Of a stretch of DNA of 58,165 nt, positions 4,638 to 37,088 are shown piece after piece; within the stretch, counting starts at the first letter, position 1, and every line of letters begins with the position of its first letter. The position numbers and the translations under genes were made by a program. Source of the DNA: Bacilli bacterium (lineage in GTDB: Bacteria; Bacillota_I; Bacilli_A; RF39; UBA660). The stretch covers positions 1 through 58,165 of the forward strand of contig JAQVWT010000002.1 of assembly GCA_028709545.1 (NCBI GenBank), written 5' to 3'. The notes beneath the pieces were generated by a model. That model made no database searches, had not been told where the DNA came from, and saw only the letters and a list, made by a program, of their open reading frames with translations.

Positions 4638-5020
4638 ATTAAACCTCTTATTATTTCTATTATTTTTGGAACAAATATTATTAAACCTATTATTACTGCC
4701 ATAATGCTTAAGACCATAACATAGGCTGCAGCGGTATCTTTAGCAAGCATAGCTTTTCTTTTATATTCCTGAGTTGCTAGATCTACTAAATGCTCGATTG
4801 CGGTATTAAGAAGTTCAGCCCCGATTACAAGGCCAATAACTGATACAATAAATATCCATTCAAGTGATGATAACTTTAAAAATAAACCTGCTATAATAAC
4901 TAAAATACCTATTATTGTATGAAACTTCATATTAGGCTCGCTATGAAAAGCATTCTTATACCCTTCAAAAGCATATTTAAAACTCTTATCAACTCTTTTA
5001 AAACTAAATTTCCTTTTCAT
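4634..5020 (-). CDS. dgkA: Diacylglycerol/undecaprenol kinase DgkA family
   Basis: About 128 aa with 3 TM segments and the EPNMKFH and ELLNTAIEHLVD motifs. Sits in the ybeY-dgkA-cdd-era order. Confidence 0.85.
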   Translation of the reverse strand: MKRKFSFKRVDKSFKYAFEGYKNAFHSEPNMKFHTIIGILVIIAGLFLKLSSLEWIFIVSVIGLVIGAELLNTAIEHLVDLATQEYKRKAMLAKDTAAAYVMVLSIMAVIIGLIIFVPKIIEIIRGLI

Positions 5021-5435: not shown

Positions 5436-6073
5436 AAAAACACCCCATATAAAGTAAATATTATATAAGCTAGGATTAAAATAACTATAAATAAGATCAC
5501 ATTAAGTAAAATATTGTTTCGTAGTTTAACTGAGTAATATTTTAAGACCTTGCCAGATAGTACATAAATAACATAACCTAAATAACCACCGATTAAATTT
5601 AAAATAATATCATCAATATCAAAACTTCTCCCAATCATACTTTGAATTATTTCAATTGAAAAACTCGTTATAAAAATAACTAATAAATTATAATAATATT
5701 TATTTAATTTACAATAATAAGAAACAAAGAAACCAAATGGTAAAAACAAAATTACATTACCAATTACATTTCTATAAAAAAGAACACTACTCATTCTATA
5801 TCTAAAAATTTCTTTAAAAGGAATAAAGTTATTACTAAAAGAGTGAAAATCAGTACTAGTGACAAGTTCAAAAAGTAAAAGTGCATAGATAACAAAACAT
5901 AAACTAATAAGCTCTTTATATAATACAAAAGGTTTATTATTAGTTTTTAAATAGACCGTTCTAATCGTAATTAAAACAATAATAAATAAAGTAAGCATCG
6001 GCCATAATTCATATATAACTTTAGTTGCTATTTTCGGGATCAACTTCATCACTTCCAATATCATAATATTCAT
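5432..6073 (-). CDS. VanZ-like family membrane protein
   Basis: Multi-TM protein with the GRSFDIDDIILNLIGGYLGY motif typical of VanZ-like proteins. Confidence 0.6.
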   Translation of the reverse strand: MNIMILEVMKLIPKIATKVIYELWPMLTLFIIVLITIRTVYLKTNNKPFVLYKELISLCFVIYALLLFELVTSTDFHSFSNNFIPFKEIFRYRMSSVLFYRNVIGNVILFLPFGFFVSYYCKLNKYYYNLLVIFITSFSIEIIQSMIGRSFDIDDIILNLIGGYLGYVIYVLSGKVLKYYSVKLRNNILLNVILFIVILILAYIIFTLYGVFL

Positions 6074-7172
6074 ACTTACTAATCAGCTGATTAGTAATAA
6101 CAAATACTCTTAATAACATTGTACTATTATTTTCTTCTTTTTTCAAAACTTTTTGACTAATTACCTTACCTTTTCCATTTAATTTTATTAAAAACTCTTC
6201 TTCAATCTTTTTTAAGGCAAGTTCCTCTGCTTTTTCTTTTGAATAATCAATTGTTTTAAGAACATATTCTTCTTCATTATAAAAAGAAATATTAAAACCT
6301 AATATATTTAATTTCTTAAGATTAGTTTGCTCAAAATATTTAAATTTATTTCTAAATAATATTTTATTATTTAAGCTTAAATTAAATCTTTTTTTACCAG
6401 TATATTCTTTTTCTTCTTTTTGCATCGGATAACTAATATCGGTTGTATACCAAACATCACCATAAACCTCACCCTTAGCAAAAACATTACCTTTTACCTC
6501 TTCATAAAGTTTAATCTCCCCAGATATTAAAACACTGCCCTTTTTAACATAATCCCCGCTTCTAACAAGAACACTTCCTCTAGATGAAATAATTTTAGTA
6601 ATAAGTGCATCTTTTGTTGCAACAAGATGAGCATATCCTTCATCCTTAGTTATTTCGGTAATTATTCTTTCTTCAATTCTAACTACATAGGTCATACCTC
6701 TTCTCGTAATACTAAGCCACTCTAAAGTATTAGGGTTATTTTTCAAAATATTGTTTTTAATTATATTAAGCTGATCAAAGTCTTTAGCAAGTGATATTTT
6801 ATCAATACCATTTTCTATTAAATTTTCTTTAACTAGTTTTCTTATATTACTATTTTCATGAATAATATCTACTTTTACAATAAAGTTAGTACTAATATCC
6901 ATTAAAATAAAACAAAAAATAACAATTAAATAAATATATATATACTTTTTAAAATGTCTCTTTATACCTTTTGTACCTTCATATTTAACTATTTTAATAT
7001 TACTGTAATAATTAAGTCTTTTGACTTTAGTATAATCTTCAAGTTTTATTTTAACTAATATATTATCTTTATCAATATAACTAACTTCAAATAAATTTAT
7101 TTTATAATCAATACATTTTCTAATAAACCTATTAATATGTTTACTAACTTTAATAATTATTAAATTAGTCAT
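6021..7172 (-). CDS. yqfD: Sporulation protein YqfD-like
   Basis: About 380 aa with a single central TM. Lies directly after a YqfC-like gene and upstream of ybeY, as in the Bacillus yqf operon. Confidence 0.6.
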   Translation of the reverse strand: MTNLIIIKVSKHINRFIRKCIDYKINLFEVSYIDKDNILVKIKLEDYTKVKRLNYYSNIKIVKYEGTKGIKRHFKKYIYIYLIVIFCFILMDISTNFIVKVDIIHENSNIRKLVKENLIENGIDKISLAKDFDQLNIIKNNILKNNPNTLEWLSITRRGMTYVVRIEERIITEITKDEGYAHLVATKDALITKIISSRGSVLVRSGDYVKKGSVLISGEIKLYEEVKGNVFAKGEVYGDVWYTTDISYPMQKEEKEYTGKKRFNLSLNNKILFRNKFKYFEQTNLKKLNILGFNISFYNEEEYVLKTIDYSKEKAEELALKKIEEEFLIKLNGKGKVISQKVLKKEENNSTMLLRVFVITNQLISKYEYYDIGSDEVDPENSN

Positions 7173-8506: not shown

Positions 8507-9223
8507 TTAATCCTTTCTATATTTATCAATAACACTTGTTGCACCAGGTGTTGTTAATCTTTCTTTATTTATTAATTTATCAGCTGATTTAACACTTAAT
8601 ATTTCATATTTTAATAAAACATCTAAGCTATCTAAATTTGCCTCATCTTTATTCAGATTATCTTTGTTATGGTTAACTATATCATAAACTTCTTTAACAG
8701 AGTTATAAGTATCTCCCACTATGCTAGATAAGACAGGGGTCTTTTCCATAACGAAGCCAGCATATTTACTTTCATTTACTTTAGTTGCTGTTCCACTTAT
8801 TAAACTAAATATAAAAACTAGTAAAAAAACTAATATATAGCCTTGGAAGAGTCCAACTAATGCCCCGAGTATTTTACTAGGAAAACCTAATAATAAAGTT
8901 TTATTCATTAAACTATTTACAGCACCAGTTACTTTAGATATTACTCTTAGGATAATAGCTAAGAGTGATATTGTAATTGAATAACTAATTGCTTCATAAA
9001 TTAAAATATTAAAAACAGTTACCCCAGCAAATTTACCACCTAAGCTAAAAAATGGTAAATGTTCATATAATAAACTTGATATTGGGTTTTTTAAATAAAA
9101 CGCTAAAACAAAGACCAACAGTGTACCTATAAATGTTACAACACTATTAATTATTCCTTGTCTAAATCCATTTAATATAGCCATTCCTATGATAATAATA
9201 ATTAAATAATCTATTATATTCAT
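8507..9223 (-). CDS. cvpA: CvpA family membrane protein
   Basis: N-terminus MNIIDYLIIIIIGMAILNGFRQGII and 4 TM segments, typical of the colicin V production protein family. Confidence 0.7.
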   Translation of the reverse strand: MNIIDYLIIIIIGMAILNGFRQGIINSVVTFIGTLLVFVLAFYLKNPISSLLYEHLPFFSLGGKFAGVTVFNILIYEAISYSITISLLAIILRVISKVTGAVNSLMNKTLLLGFPSKILGALVGLFQGYILVFLLVFIFSLISGTATKVNESKYAGFVMEKTPVLSSIVGDTYNSVKEVYDIVNHNKDNLNKDEANLDSLDVLLKYEILSVKSADKLINKERLTTPGATSVIDKYRKD

Positions 9224-27905: not shown

Positions 27906-28225
27906 ACCTCCTAAGACTGTTTTATAATCTTTTATATTTGTTTTGATAATGATTTTTTATTAAATCGTACGATAATTTTTTTCTTTTACTCTAAATCAAT
28001 TTGATTCCATATGTTAACAAAGTTTGAAAATATCACATAATGATCTTTCTACATTAGAAAAATTGATTTCTTCACTTTGAATACTTTTAATTATTGTCCT
28101 TCTACTAAGATATATTGTAGTAAAATTTCTATTTGCTTTTTTATTAATAGCAATGTTAAGTTATATCTATAATTAAATTAGTATGTACCTTCACTAAGGA
28201 AAAATTTTCCTCTTCTCCTTACAAA

Positions 28226-28305
28226 AGTAACATAAATAAAACTGCACTAATTTTAGTACAGTTTTATTTTATTGAAAATATTTTTAAATCTTCATCAGTT
28301 AATTT
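28226..28305. repeat. 80-bp direct repeat, copy A (duplicate of the pdp 3' end plus terminator)
   Basis: Identical to 29748..29827 except for 1 nt. Contains the CTGCACTA/TAGTGCAG hairpin. Confidence 0.9.
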
Positions 28306-28316
28306 TATATTTTTGA

Positions 28317-29516
28317 TTATTCTTCTAATAAAAAGTCAATTATATTTATTAGTTTTATACCTCTAATATCCTTAATAAAATTTTTATCATTAGAAATGAT
28401 TGTTTTCTCATAATGATTATTAGGGATATCTAAACTTCTAGTTTCTCTTTCTAAAACATCTGAGGATAGATTATAAACAACTTGATAGTACTTCTTTTCT
28501 GATTCTTTAGTCGCTATAAAATCTATTTCATAATCATTATTTTTACCAATCCATACTTGGTATCCTCTTCTAATAAGTTCTAAATAAACTATTGTTTCTA
28601 AAATATGTCCATAGTCAGTATCCCGGTATCCAACTATTGCGTTTCTTACTCCAGTATCAATAATATAATATTTAGCAAGAGTTTTTAATAATAATTTCCC
28701 TTTAATATCATATCTAGGAACTTTAGATATAATATAAGCTTTTTCTAAATATAAAAGATAATTATCTACCGTATTATGACTAGTTAACTGACCGCCATCT
28801 TTTAAGTAATTACTTATTTTGTTTGGAGAAATAATATTACCAGTATTTTGAGCTACAAATGCCATAACGTTATGAAGCAGTGCTATATCTTTAATATCAT
28901 TTCTTTCAATAACATCTTTCATTATAACCGTATTGTATATATCCTTTAGATATGTATTAATTGTTGCTTCATCTTTTTTTAATTCGCTTATTACTGGCAA
29001 TCCTCCATATTTAGTGTAATTTATGAAGTGCTCATCAGTGGTAATATTATTATTTTGATTAAAATCCAAATATTCCTTAAATGAAAGAGGCATCATTTTT
29101 ATTTCAACATATCTTCCAGATAAAAGAGTTGATAATTCGCTTGAAAGCAAATAAGCATTTGACCCAGTTATATAAAGATCTGAATTAAAATCTACCATAA
29201 ATGAATTAATAGCTTTTTCCCATTTTTCTATCAATTGAACTTCATCAAGAAGTATATATACTTTTCCTTTTAATTTACTTATTAGGAGTTTAACATAATC
29301 GTATAAGTCTTCATAATTCTGAATTTCCTTAAATTTAACAGATTCAAAATTAATTAAAATTATATTATTTTCTTTGATACCATTATTAATTAAATATTCC
29401 TTAAATAATAAGAGCAATGTTGATTTACCACTTCTTCTCATTCCCGTAATTACTTTTATTAAATTCGTATCTTTAAAATCAACTAATTTATTTAAATATA
29501 AATCTCTTTTTTTCAT
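28317..29516 (-). CDS. AAA-family ATPase with a DUF4143-like C-terminal domain
   Basis: Walker A GMRRSGKST and Walker B ILLDEVQ. The C-terminus resembles the restriction-endonuclease-like DUF4143. A paralog fragment lies at 57834..58165. Confidence 0.75.
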   Translation of the reverse strand: MKKRDLYLNKLVDFKDTNLIKVITGMRRSGKSTLLLLFKEYLINNGIKENNIILINFESVKFKEIQNYEDLYDYVKLLISKLKGKVYILLDEVQLIEKWEKAINSFMVDFNSDLYITGSNAYLLSSELSTLLSGRYVEIKMMPLSFKEYLDFNQNNNITTDEHFINYTKYGGLPVISELKKDEATINTYLKDIYNTVIMKDVIERNDIKDIALLHNVMAFVAQNTGNIISPNKISNYLKDGGQLTSHNTVDNYLLYLEKAYIISKVPRYDIKGKLLLKTLAKYYIIDTGVRNAIVGYRDTDYGHILETIVYLELIRRGYQVWIGKNNDYEIDFIATKESEKKYYQVVYNLSSDVLERETRSLDIPNNHYEKTIISNDKNFIKDIRGIKLINIIDFLLEE

Positions 29517-29594: not shown

Positions 29595-29747
29595 ATTTAT
29601 CCAACTTTTCGTTTGTAGTTACCAGAAAATATACAGCCAAATTTATGTATAAGCAACAGCGAATATCAAGAAATATTTGTTTATTTCTAACTTCATAGAT
29701 AACAATAACCCTCTTCTAAGGAGATTATGTCTTTTTTTCCTTAGAGA

Positions 29748-29827
29748 AGTAACATAAATAAAACTGCACTAATTTTAGTGCAGTTTTATTTTATTGAAAA
29801 TATTTTTAAATCTTCATCAGTTAATTT
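29748..29827. repeat. 80-bp direct repeat, copy B (authentic pdp 3' end plus bidirectional terminator)
   Basis: See copy A. The hairpin is flanked by A- and T-runs. Confidence 0.9.
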
Positions 29828-31006
29828 AATATTTAAATTTTTAACATAGAGCTCAGCTAAAGCTTCATCTTTTTTAACTTTATCACCTATATTTTTCAGT
29901 AGTTTAATACCTACTCCATAATCAATTTTAGATTTTTTAGTTTCTCTGCCAGCCCCAAGCTTCATAGCAAGACGTCCACAGTTTATTGCGCTTATCGCAT
30001 CAATTGTACCTTCTAAACTACTTTTTAAAGTAATAACTTTATCACTTACTTTAAGCTTTGATAAGTCTCCACCTTGAGTTATAATCCATTTCTTAAACAT
30101 CTTATGAGCGTTATCATTATCAAGAGCATTCTTGCAAAGTATTTTAGCATCTTTAACCGGAATCTCTTTTGCCATAGCAACAATACTTGCTGCAATATCT
30201 ATACTTACATCACGAAGGGGACATTTCTTTCCTTTTAAGACTTCAATAGCCTCAAGTACTTCTAAAGCATTACCAATAGAAGAAGATAAAGGACTATCCA
30301 TTGGCGTAATTAAAGTTTTAACATCCTTTTTAAAATGTTTACCGATCGATAAAAGCATCTTACTAAATTCTTTAGCATCATCAACACTCTTAATAAATGC
30401 CCCATTACCATACTTGATATCAATAACAATATAAGAAGCTCCACAGGCAATCTTTTTACTCATAATGGAAGCTGCTATTAAAGGCATTGACTCAGTGGTG
30501 CCCGTTACATCTCTTAAACTATAAATAACTTTATCAAGTGGAACTAAGTCATCAGTTTGAGAGCTAATAACAATACCTATTTTATTTACTTGATTATAAA
30601 ACTCTTCTTTACTTAACTCTACTTTATAACCAGGGATACTCTCAAGTTTATCAATAGTACCACCTGTATAACCAAGACCCCTACCACTCATTTTTGCCAT
30701 AGGGATATTCATACTAGCTACAATCGGCGCGATTATAAAAGTTGCAGTATCACCTATTCCTCCCGTACTATGCTTGTCACTTACCTTTTTATTAAATTTA
30801 TAAACATCTCCACTTTTTATAAAGACATCTGTTAAAGCAAGAGTTTCCTTCATTGTCATTCCATTAATAGTGATTGCCATTAAAAGTGCACTCATTTGAT
30901 AATCGGGAATACTTTTATTTAAATAAGAACAGAATGCAAAAGAAAGTTCATCATACGATAACTCTTCTTTATTTTTCTTTTTCAATATTATTTCTATTAT
31001 ATTCAT
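29786..31006 (-). CDS. pdp: Pyrimidine-nucleoside (thymidine) phosphorylase
   Basis: DKHSTGGIGD phosphate-binding motif and overall family layout. Confidence 0.9.
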   Translation of the reverse strand: MNIIEIILKKKNKEELSYDELSFAFCSYLNKSIPDYQMSALLMAITINGMTMKETLALTDVFIKSGDVYKFNKKVSDKHSTGGIGDTATFIIAPIVASMNIPMAKMSGRGLGYTGGTIDKLESIPGYKVELSKEEFYNQVNKIGIVISSQTDDLVPLDKVIYSLRDVTGTTESMPLIAASIMSKKIACGASYIVIDIKYGNGAFIKSVDDAKEFSKMLLSIGKHFKKDVKTLITPMDSPLSSSIGNALEVLEAIEVLKGKKCPLRDVSIDIAASIVAMAKEIPVKDAKILCKNALDNDNAHKMFKKWIITQGGDLSKLKVSDKVITLKSSLEGTIDAISAINCGRLAMKLGAGRETKKSKIDYGVGIKLLKNIGDKVKKDEALAELYVKNLNIKLTDEDLKIFSIK

Positions 31007-31026
31007 AATTATCCCAACTTTTTTCG

Positions 31027-31058
31027 GTGCTGAGAGGACTAAAGCCCTCTAACAGCAC
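31027..31058 (-). other. Conserved imperfect hairpin downstream of the target1 stop codon
   Basis: GTGCTGAGAGG-loop-CCTCT-aa-CAGCAC, with no following U-tract. Duplicated at 34495..34526. Confidence 0.5.
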
Positions 31059-31064
31059 ACCATC

Positions 31065-32192
31065 TTAACTTATTATTATGTATGGATCAGATATACTACC
31101 TGTTCCTGTTAGTTTTTTAACAGTAGATTTTAGATATAAAGAAGGACGCCCCCCGAACCCAATGCTCGCATAGTCATAGTCCACGTAGCCGCTAAAGTAC
31201 ACATACCACACACAGCTTGAGTATGACGAGTGCGGGACTAATGTCCACTCATATCCTTCTCCTCTTAACCATGCTTTCCCACCGCACATTGCACTACTAT
31301 AGCTTCCTAAACTGGTTGTTCTGGCACATGATGTTTCTAAAACAGAATATCCATAATCACTAGCATACATTAATCCTATATATCCACTTGTCTCTGTTGT
31401 CCCTCTTTCATCTGCATAAACAGCTTCTGCAGTTGACATCGAAGCTATTCCTCCTAGTTTCCATGTTACATTTTCTATCATTTCTCTATAATAATTACTT
31501 GTTATTCCAGTTTCTGTAAAATTACATACTCCTGGTATTGTAGTACTATATTGATAACAATAATTTAGACTTTCTTCATTGCTGCCATTGTAATAGTGAG
31601 TATTTAATAAATTATATAAAGATGATGCTGGCCAATCATTAGTATTACTCTTATCCCAAGCAAATGCTCCAATTGATGATCCTCTTATTATTTTAACTAA
31701 GTTTTCTCCTTCTTTTCCATGAGTACTTTCATCAAACACACCAATTATTCGCCAGAGTTCATTATTAAACATTAACCAGTTATCTGGGTTTTCTCCTTCA
31801 TAACGATAATCTGTTGCATCATATTGAATATCACCTACAACATACGACATCTCTTCAGCATATACACCATCATCATTTGTTAAACTCATTATATAAGCTG
31901 CTAGGTTTTCTGTAGTTTCAGTTGTAAAATTTAAAATACATCTTGCTTCATTATTAATATTTTTTATATTAAGTACCCAATCATCATAATCCCATGAAGC
32001 ATCCGCATTTTGACAAACACTCTTAATTTTAAAATTTCCTTTAGTAGGAATTGAGGATTGTTCTACTCCATCGACCATTACGGCAAGATATACATTATCA
32101 TCGTATAAAAAGTATTTATCTCTACTTTTTATATTTATTAATATTAGTGATATCACTAATATTAATAATCCTATTCCAATCTTTTTTTTCAT
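31065..32192 (-). CDS. DGR target protein 1 (signal-anchored surface protein with a variable C-terminal ligand-binding-type domain)
   Basis: N-terminal TM. The C-terminal ~280 aa is nearly identical to 34533..36080 except inside the VR. VR1 encodes ...LVPHSSYSSCVWYVYFSGYVDYDYASIGFGGRPSLYLK. Confidence 0.85.
   Translation of the reverse strand: MKKKIGIGLLILVISLILINIKSRDKYFLYDDNVYLAVMVDGVEQSSIPTKGNFKIKSVCQNADASWDYDDWVLNIKNINNEARCILNFTTETTENLAAYIMSLTNDDGVYAEEMSYVVGDIQYDATDYRYEGENPDNWLMFNNELWRIIGVFDESTHGKEGENLVKIIRGSSIGAFAWDKSNTNDWPASSLYNLLNTHYYNGSNEESLNYCYQYSTTIPGVCNFTETGITSNYYREMIENVTWKLGGIASMSTAEAVYADERGTTETSGYIGLMYASDYGYSVLETSCARTTSLGSYSSAMCGGKAWLRGEGYEWTLVPHSSYSSCVWYVYFSGYVDYDYASIGFGGRPSLYLKSTVKKLTGTGSISDPYIIIS
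31148..31241 (-). repeat. DGR variable repeat VR1 (94 bp)
   Basis: Colinear with the TR. Of 17 differences, 15 fall at TR adenines (coding strand). Confidence 0.9.
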
Positions 32193-32194
32193 TT

Positions 32195-32476
32195 TTAATC
32201 AGCAGTCCCTTCTATTTGCTTTATCATATTTATAAAAAATGCTCTTAATAAATATAACTGATAATTATTATCTTCATTTTCACTAATAAATTCTATTTCT
32301 AAATTATCTATTATAATATAATTAATTTTATTTTTTTGAAGATCCCTAATGTTTTTAAAATTAATAAAGTTTAATATTAATTTATCATAATTAAATGTGT
32401 GATATTTATCTTTCTTTTTGACTAAAAGTAAATAATTATTATATTTTCTTTTAAAAAATAAATATCTGTTTTTCAT
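32195..32476 (-). CDS. Small protein weakly resembling the MutS-domain-I-like gene at 34075..34467
   Basis: YLLLVKKKDKYHTFNYDKLILNFINFK parallels ALIIYKNNGKFYNVFDIDAYIFNILFNYK. Its stop abuts the target1 start. Confidence 0.35.
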   Translation of the reverse strand: MKNRYLFFKRKYNNYLLLVKKKDKYHTFNYDKLILNFINFKNIRDLQKNKINYIIIDNLEIEFISENEDNNYQLYLLRAFFINMIKQIEGTAD

Positions 32477-32507
32477 TCTACTCCCACTCTCTTTAGATAT
32501 AGTGCTA

Positions 32508-32530
32508 AGAAAGCAAATATTTTGCTTTCT
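32508..32530 (-). other. Perfect 10-bp hairpin downstream of the TR
   Basis: AGAAAGCAAA-tat-TTTGCTTTCT. Confidence 0.5.
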
Positions 32531-32636
32531 ATCTATATTTATATTCGGAAAATATATTCCAGGATAACTTATGTTCTTTAAATGCTCCTTTAAAAAGCCT
32601 TAACCATTTTAACATTCTACATTTAATGAGCTAGTA

Positions 32637-32730
32637 GCCCCCCGAACCCATTGTTCGCATTGTTATTGTTCACGTTGCCGTTATAGTTCACATTCCACAC
32701 ATTGTTCGAGTTAGACGAGTGCGGGACTAA
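32637..32730 (-). repeat. DGR template repeat (TR, 94 bp, non-coding)
   Basis: The minus strand carries 13 AAY codons in the VR frame (LVPHSSNSNNVWNVNYNGNVNNNNANNGFGG). It starts 31 nt after the RT stop, with a TAG just upstream in frame. Confidence 0.9.
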
Positions 32731-32761
32731 ATTAAGCTACCCCTATCATAATTAATAAAAT

Positions 32762-33739
32762 TTAATCCCAAATTTTATTAATTATTTTACCTATTTCATA
32801 TTTATTTGCAAATATAAATGAATTTTTATAATTCATAATACTAGAAAATTCTTCTTCCAGTGATAACAAATTATTTTTAGTTTCATAATTAAGTTTTTTT
32901 AGATTCTTTTCTATTCTCTTTTTTGTATCCGTACTTATTTTAATTATTGTTTTTTTGTTAATAATTTTAAAATTATAACCTAAGAACACTATCCCGTGCT
33001 TAATATTTCTAATATAAGTTTTTTTCTTATTTAATTCAATATCAAATTCTTTATTTAACTTCTCTTCGATTTTATATTTGTGTAGCTTTGATAAATAAAA
33101 TATAGCAAGAAACTGGGAAGAAAGATTACCAATAGGAATACCTTTACCATCTTTATATTCAGGAATTTTATTCGCGCCGTTTTTATTTACTTCAGTAATA
33201 TACTTTTTTATATAGTTTTTATTTGTACTGTCAATTACTTTTTCTACTAATAAATATTCATCCTTACTTAAATCTTTTCTTAACAGCTGTTTTAAAATAT
33301 CATGATTTATGCTATAAAAATATTTCGATAACTCAAACTTTAAAACAAAAATATCATTATGAATTTTATTTTTTTCTAAAAATTTTTTTAACATTTTTAT
33401 AGCATAACTTGTCCCCATTCCTTTTCTAGTTGCTGAATTATTTTTAAGCAAATACTTGCTTAATTTAGGCTCTAAAATATATCTTGTAATATAATGATTA
33501 ATTATCTTATCATATATATTTTGACTCATAATCAACCTTAATTTCGGTTTAGTTATTAAAAATAAATTATATTTGCCACCATCATATTTTCCATTTAATA
33601 AATTATCTCTAATATCAAGCAAATACTCTATTTTATGTAATTCAAATTTATATAATTTACTTTTATTCTTAACATTTTTGGAAATTTCATTATCATAGAT
33701 ATTAAGTAAATTTTCTAAAGTTAAAGAATCACTAAGCAT
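32762..33739 (-). CDS. DGR-type reverse transcriptase, apparently missing the YxDD box
   Basis: KPKLRLI, RKGMGT and IPIGNLSSQ (DGR hallmark) motifs, and FLGYNF. No YxDD anywhere in the ORF, and the motif-A position reads FELSKYF. Confidence 0.8.
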   Translation of the reverse strand: MLSDSLTLENLLNIYDNEISKNVKNKSKLYKFELHKIEYLLDIRDNLLNGKYDGGKYNLFLITKPKLRLIMSQNIYDKIINHYITRYILEPKLSKYLLKNNSATRKGMGTSYAIKMLKKFLEKNKIHNDIFVLKFELSKYFYSINHDILKQLLRKDLSKDEYLLVEKVIDSTNKNYIKKYITEVNKNGANKIPEYKDGKGIPIGNLSSQFLAIFYLSKLHKYKIEEKLNKEFDIELNKKKTYIRNIKHGIVFLGYNFKIINKKTIIKISTDTKKRIEKNLKKLNYETKNNLLSLEEEFSSIMNYKNSFIFANKYEIGKIINKIWD

Positions 33740-34088
33740 TATTACCTTCTTTATTCTTTTTCCAAGCTTTAACCATTTTTGTTATTTCTGTTAACAGATA
33801 TCCTTCTTTTTCAAGTTGTTTAAGAGATATGTACTTTTTTCTATATAATATTTCTAATAAAAAATCAAGAATGCTAATATTTTTTATAATATTTAAATAA
33901 TGAGTTTCAAAATCATCTAAATCAGAATTTGCTAGATATATGTTTTCTAATAAATCAAAAGTTGTAAGATTAATTTTTTCTTTTATAAAAAAATCTTTTC
34001 TAGGAATATTTTCCATTAAGTTATATAAATCTAATATAAACTTTTTTGTTTTTTTAGATATAATAAAATTATCATTAAAGACTCTCAT
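33732..34088 (-). CDS. avd: Accessory variability determinant (Avd-like four-helix-bundle protein)
   Basis: 118 aa, helical, with an IPRK motif near helix 1 and a basic C-terminus. Overlaps the RT start. Confidence 0.75.
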   Translation of the reverse strand: MRVFNDNFIISKKTKKFILDLYNLMENIPRKDFFIKEKINLTTFDLLENIYLANSDLDDFETHYLNIIKNISILDFLLEILYRKKYISLKQLEKEGYLLTEITKMVKAWKKNKEGNNA

Positions 34089-34467
34089 TAATAATATCTA
34101 TGATCCTTTCTAAATCATCAGCACTAGCAACCATTAATTTCTTATTAATTAAATTTAATTTATCATTCAATAAAATTTTGTTTTTTGCCTCGTTATAATA
34201 TTTAGAATAAGTATTAAATTTAAATTTTTTACCTTCGGCATCTTTATCTTTATAAATAATTTGATAAGAAATTTTCTCGTTTTCTATTGTATTTATAATT
34301 TTGTTTAAAGCATTGTCTGGAAATCCCGCTTTATTATTAATTACTTTATAATTAAATAATATATTAAAAATATAAGCATCTATATCAAAAACATTATAAA
34401 ACTTACCATTATTCTTGTAGATTATTAATGCTGTTTTTTTATTTTTATTAATATGCTTGGTAGACAA
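34075..34467 (-). CDS. MutS domain I (mismatch-binding)-like small protein, DGR accessory
   Basis: ALIIYKNNGKFYNVFDIDAYIFNILFNYKVINNKAGFPDNALNKIINTIENEKISYQII aligns by eye with E. coli MutS [30 protein letters not shown]...[25 protein letters not shown]. Confidence 0.6.
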   Translation of the reverse strand: MSTKHINKNKKTALIIYKNNGKFYNVFDIDAYIFNILFNYKVINNKAGFPDNALNKIINTIENEKISYQIIYKDKDAEGKKFKFNTYSKYYNEAKNKILLNDKLNLINKKLMVASADDLERIIDIINESL

Positions 34468-34494
34468 TTTTCTTCCTCCTTCTATTTTTTTTTG

Positions 34495-34526
34495 GTGCTG
34501 AGAGGACTAAAGCCCTCTAACAGCAC
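34495..34526 (-). other. Conserved imperfect hairpin downstream of the target2 stop codon
   Basis: Same sequence as 31027..31058. Followed by an A-run and the AGGAGG RBS of the next gene. Confidence 0.5.
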
Positions 34527-34532
34527 ACTTTC

Positions 34533-36080
34533 TTAACTTATTATTATGTATGGATCAGATATACTACCTGTTCCTGTTAGTTTTTTAACAGTAGATTTTA
34601 GATATAAAGAAGGACGCCCCCCGCACCCATTGCTCGCAGGGTCATTGTACACGAGGCCGGTACCGGACACAAGCCACACACTGATTGAGCTTGACGAGTG
34701 CGGGACTAATGTCCACTCATATCCTTCTCCTCTTAACCATGCTTTCCCACCGCACATTGCACTATTATAACTTCCTAAACTGGTTGCTCTGGCACATGAT
34801 GTTTTTAAAACAGAATATCCATAATCACTAGCATACATTAATCCTATATATCCACTTGTCTCTGTTGTCCCTCTTTCATCTGCATAAACAGCTTCTGCAG
34901 TTGACATCGAAGCTATGCCTCCTAGTTTCCATGTTACATTTTCTATCATTTCTCTATAATAATTACTTGTTATTCCAGTTTCTGTAAAATTACATACTCC
35001 TGGTATTGTTATACTATATTGATAACAATAATTTAGACTTTCTTCATTGGTTCCATTGTAATAGTGAGTATTTAATAAATTATATAAAGATGATGCTGGC
35101 CAATCATTAGTATTACTCTTATCCCAAGCAAATGCTCCAATTGATGATCCTCTTATTATTTTAACTAATTTTTCTCCTGTTTTTCCATGAGTACTTTCAT
35201 CAAACACACCAATTATTCGCCATAGTTCATTATTAAACATTATCCAGTTATCTGGGTTTTCTCCTTCATAACGATAATCTGTTGCTGGTTCATTATATAC
35301 ACCATCATCATTTGTTAAACTCATTATATAATCAGCTAGATTTTCTGTGTTTTCAGTTTTACTAGTTAAATTTATTTTCTGATCAGTACTATCTAGTGAG
35401 TTTATTGTAATACCCCCTAGTTTATAATTCCAAGTGGCACCTACAAAGTTAGTATTATATGAGCCTGATGGTTGATCTGGTATTTGAAGTGTTAAATTTG
35501 CTGGCATTGTTACTACTGAGGCTGTTACGGTTATTTTTGATTGAAAAGTTTTGTTTGCTCCCTGTTCAGTAGTTGTTGCCTCATCTACCCACAATCTTAA
35601 ATCAAATGTTGCAAAATCATTTGGAAATAAACTAGTTCCAGAGGAAATAGCATAGCTCGTAGCACCATCTATAGTAGGTGTTACTTGTGGGTTACTACTA
35701 AGTAAACTTGATGTATTATTAAGTGCTACTTTGACATAATCCGAGCTTAGAGTTGACACTGGCAATACTTCTAAGTTTATATCAAGTTCTGTATATACAT
35801 CACAGTTATTTGTTACTTTAAAAGTATATGGGGTTTTAGTCATACCTTCAGAGTCTGGTATAGGATACTCTCCTTCCAAGTTAATTGCATTTGTTACATC
35901 TGTAAAAGTTATATCTAAGCATTTTAAAGTATCTAGTTGATTAATACCTGATTGAGTAGCTGACTTTCGCCAGTAGGCATAGGAAATACTCAATATTATA
36001 ACTAGTAATAATATTGGTCCTAAAATAATTAAAAATTTTTTTGACTTACTATCTATCTTTTTCATAATTTTATTATACAA
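34533..36080 (-). CDS. DGR target protein 2 (signal-anchored surface protein, longer N-terminal region)
   Basis: N-terminal anchor plus ISYAYWR, Ig-like segments, and a C-terminal domain paralogous to target1. VR2 encodes LVPHSSSSISVWLVSGTGLVYNDPASNGCGGRPSLYLK. Confidence 0.85.
   Translation of the reverse strand: MYNKIMKKIDSKSKKFLIILGPILLLVIILSISYAYWRKSATQSGINQLDTLKCLDITFTDVTNAINLEGEYPIPDSEGMTKTPYTFKVTNNCDVYTELDINLEVLPVSTLSSDYVKVALNNTSSLLSSNPQVTPTIDGATSYAISSGTSLFPNDFATFDLRLWVDEATTTEQGANKTFQSKITVTASVVTMPANLTLQIPDQPSGSYNTNFVGATWNYKLGGITINSLDSTDQKINLTSKTENTENLADYIMSLTNDDGVYNEPATDYRYEGENPDNWIMFNNELWRIIGVFDESTHGKTGEKLVKIIRGSSIGAFAWDKSNTNDWPASSLYNLLNTHYYNGTNEESLNYCYQYSITIPGVCNFTETGITSNYYREMIENVTWKLGGIASMSTAEAVYADERGTTETSGYIGLMYASDYGYSVLKTSCARATSLGSYNSAMCGGKAWLRGEGYEWTLVPHSSSSISVWLVSGTGLVYNDPASNGCGGRPSLYLKSTVKKLTGTGSISDPYIIIS
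34616..34709 (-). repeat. DGR variable repeat VR2 (94 bp)
   Basis: Colinear with the TR. Of 20 differences, 16 fall at TR adenines. Confidence 0.9.
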
Positions 36081-36104
36081 AAAAAAAGCCTTGATTTCAA
36101 GACT

Positions 36105-36452
36105 TTAGTTTCCAGTTCTTTCTTTTACTTTGTATTCTTTAACCATTTTGTCTAAGAAGTTAAGTTTAGCTCTTCTAACAAAACCTTTTTTAATAACAGT
36201 TATCTTATCAACAAGCGGGCTATTTACTGGGAATGTTCTTTTAACAACAACACTTCCACTTTTCTTTCTTACTGTAAAAGTCTCTGAGACTGATCCACCT
36301 TTTTTAGATATTACTAACCCTTCAAAAGCTTGGATTCTTTCTTTTTTTCCTTCTTTGATCCAAACATCAACTCTAACAATATCTCCTACTCTAAATTCAG
36401 GAGTATCAGGTTTAATTTGTTTAGCATCAATCTTCTTAATTAATTCATTCAT
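36105..36452 (-). CDS. rplS: 50S ribosomal protein L19
   Basis: PEFRVGDIVRVDVWIKEGKKERIQAFEG is typical of L19. Start at MNELIKK (115 aa). Confidence 0.93.
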   Translation of the reverse strand: MNELIKKIDAKQIKPDTPEFRVGDIVRVDVWIKEGKKERIQAFEGLVISKKGGSVSETFTVRKKSGSVVVKRTFPVNSPLVDKITVIKKGFVRRAKLNFLDKMVKEYKVKERTGN

Positions 36453-36535
36453 TAAGTACGTTTCCTTTCTGTAATATAATCTATTATAATCATTAATATA
36501 TAAGCGGATTACAACGGCTTTTAACAAGCAAAATG

Positions 36536-36564
36536 ATTATAGCACATCATTTTGACTTGTACAA
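36536..36564 (-). promoter_or_regulatory. Candidate promoter for rplS
   Basis: Minus strand reads TTGTAC - 17 nt - (TGc)TATAAT, about 85 nt upstream of the start. Confidence 0.4.
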
Positions 36565-36689
36565 GTCCCTTAATTACTCTGGTATGCCTAGTAACTAATC
36601 TAAGATATATATTTTTTTGATTCCGTTATATAATATTATTTTAAACTAAAACTTGCTAAAATTGAGTAGTTTTAGAATTACGAACTAAA

Positions 36690-37088
36690 TTATCGTGTTT
36701 TTGTCTTCTCGGTTTTATAAGTATATGTTTTAAGTCTTTTTTGTAGTTCTAAAGCAAGAAATCTGATATTTTTAAAATACTTGTCTCTTGCTTCTCTTGA
36801 TAAATGTTTTTCATATTTTTTTAAAATAATACTTCTTTGTTTAGCAAGTTCATCGTATAACTTACCAGTCTCAGTTTCTTCATCTTCTTCTGAAGTAAGA
36901 TATGTTAAAACTTTAATTAAAATAGGATTCAATATTTTAAATACTTCTTTTAATAAGATAGTATCAATATACTTTTGATAGTTAAGTGATATTTCTTGTT
37001 TTTTAAATTTTATTAGATAAGCATTTTGGTTATTCTCAAAGTCTAAGACTTTGAGATTGATTTTTTCTTTTATTAATACATAATTCAT
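36690..37088 (-). CDS. Hypothetical protein
   Basis: 132-aa ORF between trmD and rplS; no recognisable motif. Confidence 0.4.
   Translation of the reverse strand: MNYVLIKEKINLKVLDFENNQNAYLIKFKKQEISLNYQKYIDTILLKEVFKILNPILIKVLTYLTSEEDEETETGKLYDELAKQRSIILKKYEKHLSREARDKYFKNIRFLALELQKRLKTYTYKTEKTKTR

Follow-up and report, generated by a model that had tools for sequence, protein, structure and literature searches.

Diversity-generating retroelements (DGRs) are, to our knowledge, the only natural systems of targeted protein hypermutation in prokaryotes. Here, we describe a DGR in a 58,165-nt stretch of DNA from an uncultured Bacilli bacterium (contig JAQVWT010000002.1, assembly GCA_028709545.1), referred to below as “the window”. 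The DNA of this organism is very AT-rich (26.8% GC). All genes of the cassette are on the minus strand and closely packed, in the order target 2, msl1, avd, reverse transcriptase (RT), template repeat (TR), structured RNA, msl2, target 1. The avd gene overlaps msl1 by 14 nt and the RT gene by 8 nt. An earlier sequence-only reading of this DNA had placed the cassette between the housekeeping genes pdp and rplS. Indeed, the flanking genes were identified as pdp on one side and rplS, trmD, and rimM on the other. A promoter-like site upstream of target 2 (36100–36072, minus strand), directly after a terminator-like hairpin of rplS, matches the consensus at 11 of 12 positions; with a promoter known as a consensus match alone, this fits a cassette that forms an operon separate from rplS. 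Judged by its sequence, the element is a chromosomal DGR, located between rplS and pdp, of the class that contains a MutS-like (Msl) accessory gene. Genetic code 4 was considered and rejected, as translation with table 11 already gives long, complete open reading frames (ORFs). A phage origin was also rejected, as the flanking housekeeping genes are syntenic across species.

The TR (32637–32730, minus strand) is non-coding and aligns without gaps over 94 nt with two variable repeats (VRs): VR1 (31148–31241) at the 3′ end of target gene 1, and VR2 (34616–34709) at the 3′ end of target gene 2, both also on the minus strand. The colinear 94-nt match reported in the sequence-only reading is therefore exact in its coordinates. 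Read in the VR frame, the TR is LVPHSSNSNNVWNVNYNGNVNNNNANNGFGG, with 13 AAY (Asn) codons, the number given in that reading, which had also described the VRs as differing from the TR almost only at TR adenines. VR1 has 17 mismatches to the TR, 15 of them at TR adenines; VR2 has 20, with 16 at TR adenines. Since the TR consists of 29 A and 65 non-A positions, the adenine bias of the mismatches is strong (Fisher exact p = 8e-8 for VR1 and 4e-7 for VR2). Every Asn codon of the TR (13 in all) is altered in VR1, and 11 of them are altered in VR2. The reading frames of both VRs are open, and 81 nt separate the end of each VR from the stop codon of its gene. The TR follows the RT stop codon at a distance of 31 nt, an arrangement also seen in related loci with the TR after the RT (80 related loci were collected in an RT-alignment scan of GTDB species genomes). 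No ORF of ≥50 amino acids in the ORF list covers the TR, and TR-like sequence within the 58-kb window is limited to the TR, VR1, and VR2 sites.

Homology between the TR and VRs stops at a G-rich block, GGGTTCGGGGGGC, and the sequences beyond it are unrelated. The same boundary had been described in the sequence-only reading as resembling an initiation-of-mutagenic-homing (IMH) block. VR2 has two private changes at non-A positions, one of which turns GGGTTC into GGGTGC within the G-rich terminal block. Both VRs are followed, 24 nt downstream and within coding sequence, by a perfect 6-bp inverted repeat, CTGTTA-AAAAAC-TAACAG (31103–31120 and 34571–34588, minus strand). This repeat is lineage-specific, is not conserved in the closest relatives, and is probably not a DGR target-recognition hairpin. 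More broadly, when the sequences downstream of 60 VRs were searched for a conserved hairpin or cruciform, no consistent element emerged. A terminator-like GGGGGG/CCTTCT stem at the VR ends was rejected, because it depends on G-T pairing and is not found in relatives.

In principle, repeats such as these could arise by paralogy or gene conversion, with no retroelement at work and an adenine bias due to chance. The two targets are recent paralogues, which this explanation would account for, but its reach extends no further. It has to contend with a Fisher p value of ~1e-7 for each VR, with a non-coding TR that adjoins a DGR-clade RT and Avd, and with the recurrence of the TR/VR pattern in dozens of homologous loci, where 70–100% of mismatches are at TR adenines. 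The adenine pattern, here and in the homologous loci, effectively refutes this explanation, to which we assign a negligible probability.

The RT gene (32762..33739, minus strand) encodes a protein of 325 amino acids. Its best PDB match is the Bordetella RT, bRT (8ub7, E = 1e-10), versus E = 0.12 for the group II intron GsI-IIC RT, and with the group II maturase model it scores 49 bits, where the cut-off is 300. The IGNLSSQ motif, which the sequence-only reading had put forward as DGR-specific, is present. A search found 518 RT homologues of ~355 amino acids with YMDD and IGN[LM][ST]SQ. With bRT as the best match, and with homologues that sit in TR/VR cassettes, the protein appears to be a DGR-type RT rather than a group II, retron, or Abi RT.

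The ORF of the RT gene is intact and carries two lesions: a 96-nt in-frame deletion and a change to Glu136. In an alignment with 10 homologues, all of which have YMDD, a 32-column gap removes the segment ...IIxxLxLKYxIxYMDDYIIxHxDKxYLKxCLxx.... The deletion thus comprises 32 amino acids (96 nt), with its junction between 33073 and 33072, and motif C, which includes YMDD, is lost. In motif A, the RT has LKFELSKYF, versus LKxD[IL]xKYF in all others aligned; the codon GAG at 33332–33334 specifies Glu136 in place of the Asp found in relatives (D136E). In an alignment with bRT, E136 pairs with D138, and RT residues 219–243 span bRT residues 197–251. The catalytic aspartates of bRT are D138, D215, and D216 (bioRxiv 10.1101/2023.10.23.563531). 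Because the YMDD segment is deleted and the motif-A Asp is replaced by Glu, the RT is left with none of the three, and the protein as encoded is predicted to be incapable of catalysis. The anatomy of the DGR cassette proposed in the sequence-only reading stands, but that reading missed the lesion, and with it the predicted loss of RT activity. We regard the element as a genuine DGR that is most likely inactive in this genome, a conclusion held with a good degree of confidence.

Sequences from related strains bear on the age of the lesion. A 913-nt metagenomic contig from ENA (L002) is 99.35% identical to the window over 770 nt and retains both the motif-A Asp and YMDD. This contig runs on into TTATAGAAAATTTAAAACTTGAAGATATGATATGTTATATGGATGAT... 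(CYMDD; protein ...CYMDDYIIV...), where the window jumps to AAATCGAAGAG... (KIEEKL). Five substitutions separate the two sequences, one of which is the change from GAT to GAG at 33332. Inactivation looks recent, given that the other parts of the cassette are intact and that a 99%-identical strain fragment has Asp and YMDD. The same deletion is found in L001, an NCBI contig (JAQUJT010000035.1, GCA_028680795.1) from a metagenome-assembled genome (MAG); this contig matches the window at 100% identity along 10,952 nt. None of the 80 related loci lacks the YMDD segment. RTs with other apparent damage occur among them: L044 has YMND (RT at 5989–7074), and the RT of L013 and of L039 is split into two ORFs, with msl genes also undetectable in L013. 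Judging from these loci, sporadic RT decay does occur in the family.

Several points weigh against the conclusion that the element is inactive. The lesion is known from assembled sequence alone, and a minority or intact allele may coexist. L001 probably derives from the same sample as the window, which makes it weak as independent support. The visible part of the genome is 58 kb, and the remainder could encode an intact DGR RT that acts in trans. The ORF of the local RT is in frame and complete to its C-terminus, as a still-selected gene would be. L002 is a contig of 2x coverage with a stop codon 13 codons past YMDD, so that its own integrity is uncertain; its positions 881–913 are Illumina adapter (AGATCGGAAGAGCACACGTCTGAACTCCAGTCAC), making its 3′ end unreliable. 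Lastly, the non-A mismatches between TR and VRs are few and could be ordinary polymorphism.

Two alternatives follow from these points. If the 96-nt deletion and D136E stemmed from faulty assembly or consensus calling, or represented a minority allele, with an intact RT in the actual population, the DGR could be fully active. In favor of this, L002, which comes from another sample, has both Asp and YMDD, and all other parts of the cassette are intact; in addition, the L001 contig breaks inside the RT gene at window position 33713, which could reflect strain heterogeneity. However, the identical junction is present in two public records, and a clean, in-frame loss of 96 nt without a repeat at the site is atypical of assembler error. 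Moreover, the same gene has a second, independent change to a catalytic residue (GAT to GAG), 260 nt away. We regard full activity as unlikely. Alternatively, the local RT could be dead, while an intact DGR RT-Avd pair from another locus of the genome still acts in trans on the TR-derived RNA and both VRs. Of the complete genomes that contain DGRs, about 10% hold several (PMC5758913), at least one related MAG (bin BRZ_DE__bin3) has two RT loci, L006 and L054, and the TR, RNA element, avd, and msl genes of the window are intact. By contrast, the 58-kb window has no second RT or further TR-like sequence, and a protein search gave no second close RT from this organism. RNA recognition by Bordetella RT-Avd involves many specific contacts (bioRxiv 10.1101/2023.10.23.563531), meaning that a closely related RT would be needed. 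Service in trans strikes us as very unlikely.

A contig from the Logan collection (L083, SRR33579976) carries a target 2 orthologue with 1.9% differences outside the VR, whereas its VR differs from VR2 at ~28 of 94 positions (about 30%). VR-only polymorphism among related strains had been suggested as a check in the sequence-only reading, and this pair of strains exhibits it. Relative to the TR of the window, the L083 VR has 17 mismatches, 14 of them at TR adenines. At the level of sequence, such hypervariability between strains shows past activity in the lineage and, because the related strain has a heavily re-diversified VR2, the element appears to have been active recently. Exact-pattern scans of JGI metagenome contigs, using the flank of the RT junction and the flank of the VR, gave no match, and so no further strain alleles. 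Some differences between TR and VRs are at non-A positions. At TR position 17, A is found in VR1, VR2, and the L083 VR, as well as in the TRs of L003 and L004, whereas the window TR has T. At position 23, the three VRs have A, A, and T, versus G in the TR. These changes, together with the two private non-A changes of VR2, are suggestive, but only suggestive, of drift or decay since the last homing event.

Directly 3′ of the TR is a 140-nt structured RNA (32495–32634, minus strand), the spacer-like part of the predicted DGR RNA, which was delineated with a covariance model. It has five helices: P1 (32629–32619/32585–32575), P2 (32612–32603/32598–32590), P3 (32561–32557/32550–32546), P4 (32538–32533/32502–32497), and P5 (32530–32521/32517–32508), all on the minus strand. 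Sixteen sequences downstream of TRs each fold alike by single-sequence minimum free energy prediction, with three hairpins and five helices. RNAalifold applied to MAFFT alignments of these 16 sequences recovered the 3′ helix alone, with the 5′ half out of register; a seed of seven sequences and a covariance model solved this. The seed was drawn from seven other loci, with the window left out, and has 40 consensus pairs over 137 positions. The model finds the window element at 65 bits (E = 5e-9) and gives 91 matches in related loci. Wherever the TR was mapped, the RNA element starts within a few nucleotides of the TR end, in both of the cassette layouts described below. In the RNA alignment, 89.7% of cells are paired, versus 43–49% with slid partners, a large margin in an alignment that was fitted to the model and so favors structure. 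All 40 pairs show compensatory (i.e., double-sided) changes. An Rfam scan of 30500–36600 at E ≤ 1 matched no family. In Bordetella, bRT-Avd needs spacer RNA for cis-priming, and such elements are predicted to be widespread, including in Bacillota (bioRxiv 10.1101/2023.10.23.563531). By analogy, the element described here may be the functional counterpart of the Bordetella spacer RNA, with a putative role in priming.

Some relatives have tandem arrays of three to five modules, each consisting of a TR and the structured RNA (L033:7100-9170, L021:3950-5180, L077:1030-5125, L035:550-1400, and L032:2230-4115). Two such modules each are found in L019, L040, and L053. The TR copies within arrays differ among themselves at both A and non-A positions, and look like alternative templates for one VR family.

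Three small genes accompany the RT. The avd gene (33732..34088, minus strand; 118 amino acids) encodes the accessory variability determinant. The Avd-like gene noted between the targets in the sequence-only reading passes the Pfam model for bAvd (PF22296; 48.3 bits versus a cut-off of 40), and matches the NCBIfam DivGenRetAVD model at E = 1e-11, a score below that model’s own cut-off. Pfam and NCBIfam scans of the cassette proteins gave no match to HRDC. The same reading had listed two small genes resembling MutS domain I, of which one is well supported and the other is only faintly related. The first, msl1 (34075..34467, minus strand; 130 amino acids), matches Pfam MutS_I at E = 9e-4, with 19.9 bits versus a cut-off of 20.6; 20 of 31 members of its family match MutS_I, the best at 5e-7. 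The family profile aligns to the mismatch-binding domain of MSH6, with GKFYE/GFPE opposite GKFYN/GFP. Phe23 of Msl1 is invariant in the family and aligns with the Phe of the Phe-X-Glu mismatch-binding motif. The second, msl2 (32195..32476, minus strand; 93 amino acids), is a conserved accessory ORF whose homologues adjoin the RT or the TR. It matches MutS_I at E = 0.096, with 5 of 33 family members at E ≤ 0.1, and hhalign relates it to the Msl1 family with a probability of 58% (E = 1e-4). From these similarities, Msl2 is possibly a degenerate Msl paralogue.

Msl is an accessory gene already described for DGRs (PMC5758913), including those of Bacteroides (bioRxiv 10.1101/2024.11.15.621889). In Bacteroides, a mutS knockout increases retrohoming 5–10-fold (bioRxiv 10.1101/2024.11.15.621889). 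Because of this effect, it is plausible, by analogy, that Msl1 has a role in handling the mismatch-dense heteroduplex of complementary DNA (cDNA) and VR.

Target gene 1 (31065..32192, minus strand) encodes 375 amino acids, with an N-terminal helix (residues 2–24), a beta-sandwich, and a C-terminal DUF6273-like module that contains VR1, as delineated from the ORF list and AlphaFold2 models. Target gene 2 (34533..36080, minus strand) encodes 515 amino acids when counted from a TTG at 36080; the protein has a hydrophobic anchor at its N-terminus, and VR2 falls within its C-terminal DUF6273-like module. The true start of the gene is likely the ATG at 36065 (MKKIDSK...), as in the orthologue P0122, which is 94% identical, with differences concentrated in the VR. 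The two targets were described as paralogous in the sequence-only reading, and they do have in common a duplicated 3′ module of 799 nt (31019–31817 and 34487–35285). Within this module, the 576 nt that precede the VR differ between the paralogues at 14 positions (2.4%) and the 94-nt VR at 18 (19%), while the 85 coding nt that follow are identical. Both targets have a hydrophobic N-terminal helix (residues 2–24 in the model), which fits membrane-anchored proteins.

The C-terminal module was also modelled alone (predicted local distance difference test [pLDDT] 82.5; predicted template modelling [pTM] score 0.87). In a Foldseek search of this model against PDB, the only significant neighbor was 9qa6 (E = 1.6e-6, probability 1.00, TM 0.51 over 295 columns). 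With the full-length target model, Foldseek found nothing significant in PDB and BFVD, and the profile of the target family gave no match to PDB sequences even at E = 10. The target protein aligns to Pfam DUF6273 (PF19789) at E = 0.16, which is below threshold, with residues 180–356 on model positions 26–172 of 172; among 36 close homologues of the target, 21 match DUF6273 at E ≤ 0.01, the best at 5e-5. These matches and the structural model point to a DUF6273-like variable domain; a C-type-lectin fold is not directly shown.

The msl1-avd-RT-msl2 core is common to related cassettes. We scanned 83 sources, i.e., the 80 related loci together with L001, L002, and the window segment; Avd was found in 80 of these, Msl1 in 76, and Msl2 in 72. 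Nearly all of the 80 loci are from uncultured gut or rumen MAGs labelled “Bacilli”, “Tenericutes”, or “Mycoplasma”. We found nothing specific in the literature on DGRs in Tenericutes or RF39. The family has two layouts, with the TR either after the RT, as here, or before msl1. Nine loci have two VRs per TR (L004, L005, L006, L012, L018, L020, L025, L050, and L071). L003 also has a two-target layout, with the upstream target cut by the contig end and one VR matched. In two cases, the VRs of both targets are identical to each other and differ from the TR (L004:5059-5154 versus 8560-8655; L005:1261-1348 versus 4868-4955); gene conversion, a shared homing event, or assembly collapse are possible causes. 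The pdp flank is common to L003 and L004, and the trmD-rplS flank is also found in L004. Because these flanks are shared, the cassette is best regarded as an old chromosomal resident rather than phage cargo.

The neighborhood of the cassette has two other features. A 132-aa ORF (36690–37088, minus strand), for which Pfam gave no match, lies between trmD and rplS as an extra insert in the conserved rimM-trmD-rplS cluster. On the pdp side, 119-nt direct repeats (28194–28312 and 29716–29834) that are 90% identical flank an AAA_14/DUF4143 ATPase gene (28317–29516); the second copy (29716–29834) overlaps the 3′ end of pdp. The repeats look like the footprint of an insertion of ~1.5 kb that duplicated the end of pdp.

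Together, these features suggest how the element would work when intact. The operon, running from target 2 through msl1, avd, RT, TR/RNA, and msl2 to target 1, would yield an RNA that comprises the TR and a folded 3′ spacer. RT-Avd would copy the TR into cDNA, misincorporating opposite adenines, and the cDNA would replace the terminal ~94 nt of each target’s variable module, with the G-rich block GGGTTCGGGGGGC as the 3′ limit of homology. In this way, 13 Asn codons in the DUF6273-type domain of two membrane-anchored proteins would be randomised, with a potential repertoire of ~15^13 = 2e15 peptides. For priming in cis from the spacer, for the part played by Avd, and for homing of the cDNA, this scheme follows the Bordetella paradigm. 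In this genome, with an RT that lacks the catalytic aspartates, most likely no further diversification takes place, and VR1 and VR2 would be frozen alleles.

A more speculative possibility, which we hold to be doubtful, is that the RT lesion is a naturally segregating “lock” allele, as opposed to random decay. Populations of this vertically inherited, chromosomal lineage would switch diversification off through loss of RT function and so freeze advantageous pairs of VR1 and VR2, with Avd, Msl1, Msl2, and the TR-derived RNA kept for re-arming by recombination with an intact allele (e.g., that of L002). In the same scenario, msl2 and the covarying RNA would define a distinct DGR subtype, with the RNA occurring in arrays of two to five alternative TR modules in some relatives.

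The element is a well-resolved DGR example from uncultured, probably wall-less gut Bacilli, with host surface proteins that have a DUF6273 domain as its products. It also carries a practical lesson. Detectors that score RT, TR/VR, and Avd would class the element as active, despite a polymerase without catalytic aspartates. It is therefore advisable, when proteins are catalogued as “DGR-diversified”, to check the integrity of the RT before a DGR is called active. The covariance model, the second accessory ORF, and the tandem TR modules provide handles for studies of how Msl functions and how DGR RNA is recognised. These results leave the established view of the DGR mechanism unchanged.

Comparison with described systems shows which parts of the element are familiar. 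The DGR of Bordetella phage BPP-1 (mtd-avd-TR-brt), the prototype of these elements, is alike in its RT-Avd pair, with bRT as the closest solved relative; in its non-coding TR, from which A-to-N changes are passed to a VR located 3′-terminally in the gene for a ligand-binding protein; and in its G/C-rich 3′ homology boundary. The BPP-1 system has an essential structured RNA downstream of the TR, where the element described here has the covarying 140-nt element. The two systems differ in several respects. The BPP-1 DGR is phage-borne with the order avd-TR-RT, whereas the element here is chromosomal with the order avd-RT-TR, two targets, and the extra small genes msl1 and msl2. Its variable domain resembles DUF6273 and gave no detectable match to Mtd; there is no conserved hairpin downstream of the VR; and its RT has no equivalents of D138, D215, and D216.

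Closer in gene content are the Msl-containing DGRs, i.e., Architecture D of Wu et al. (2018), known from Legionella pneumophila, and the Bfr, Bth, and Bun DGRs of Bacteroides (PMC5758913; bioRxiv 10.1101/2024.11.15.621889). These are alike in having a small MutS-domain-I-like protein together with avd and no HRDC gene. Their targets are lipoprotein or pilus-tip proteins, whereas those described here are DUF6273 proteins; in addition, the host here is an uncultured low-GC Bacilli bacterium, a second conserved small ORF (msl2) flanks the RT/TR, and the RT is defective. DUF6273 itself has precedents. In DGRs of Faecalibacterium prophages and of “tentaclin” phages, the VR is likewise at the C-terminal end of a DUF6273 domain, and some of these cassettes have two targets (PMC11792537, PMC10743442). 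Those targets are phage receptor-binding or decoration proteins, unlike the host membrane-anchored proteins found here in a syntenic housekeeping neighborhood. The structural neighbor of the C-terminal module, 9qa6, is the N-terminal DUF6273 domain of the Thomasclavelia ramosa immunoglobulin A (IgA) peptidase, with 17% sequence identity; the domain belongs to a secreted M64 peptidase, where it is not diversified by a DGR and no function has been assigned to it (PMC12402451). Both Msl-containing and two-target DGRs are classes already described (PMC5758913), the latter accounting for ~13% of catalogued DGRs. The element differs from a textbook DGR in its host lineage, its msl2 ORF, its DUF6273 host-surface targets, and the lost catalytic residues of its RT.

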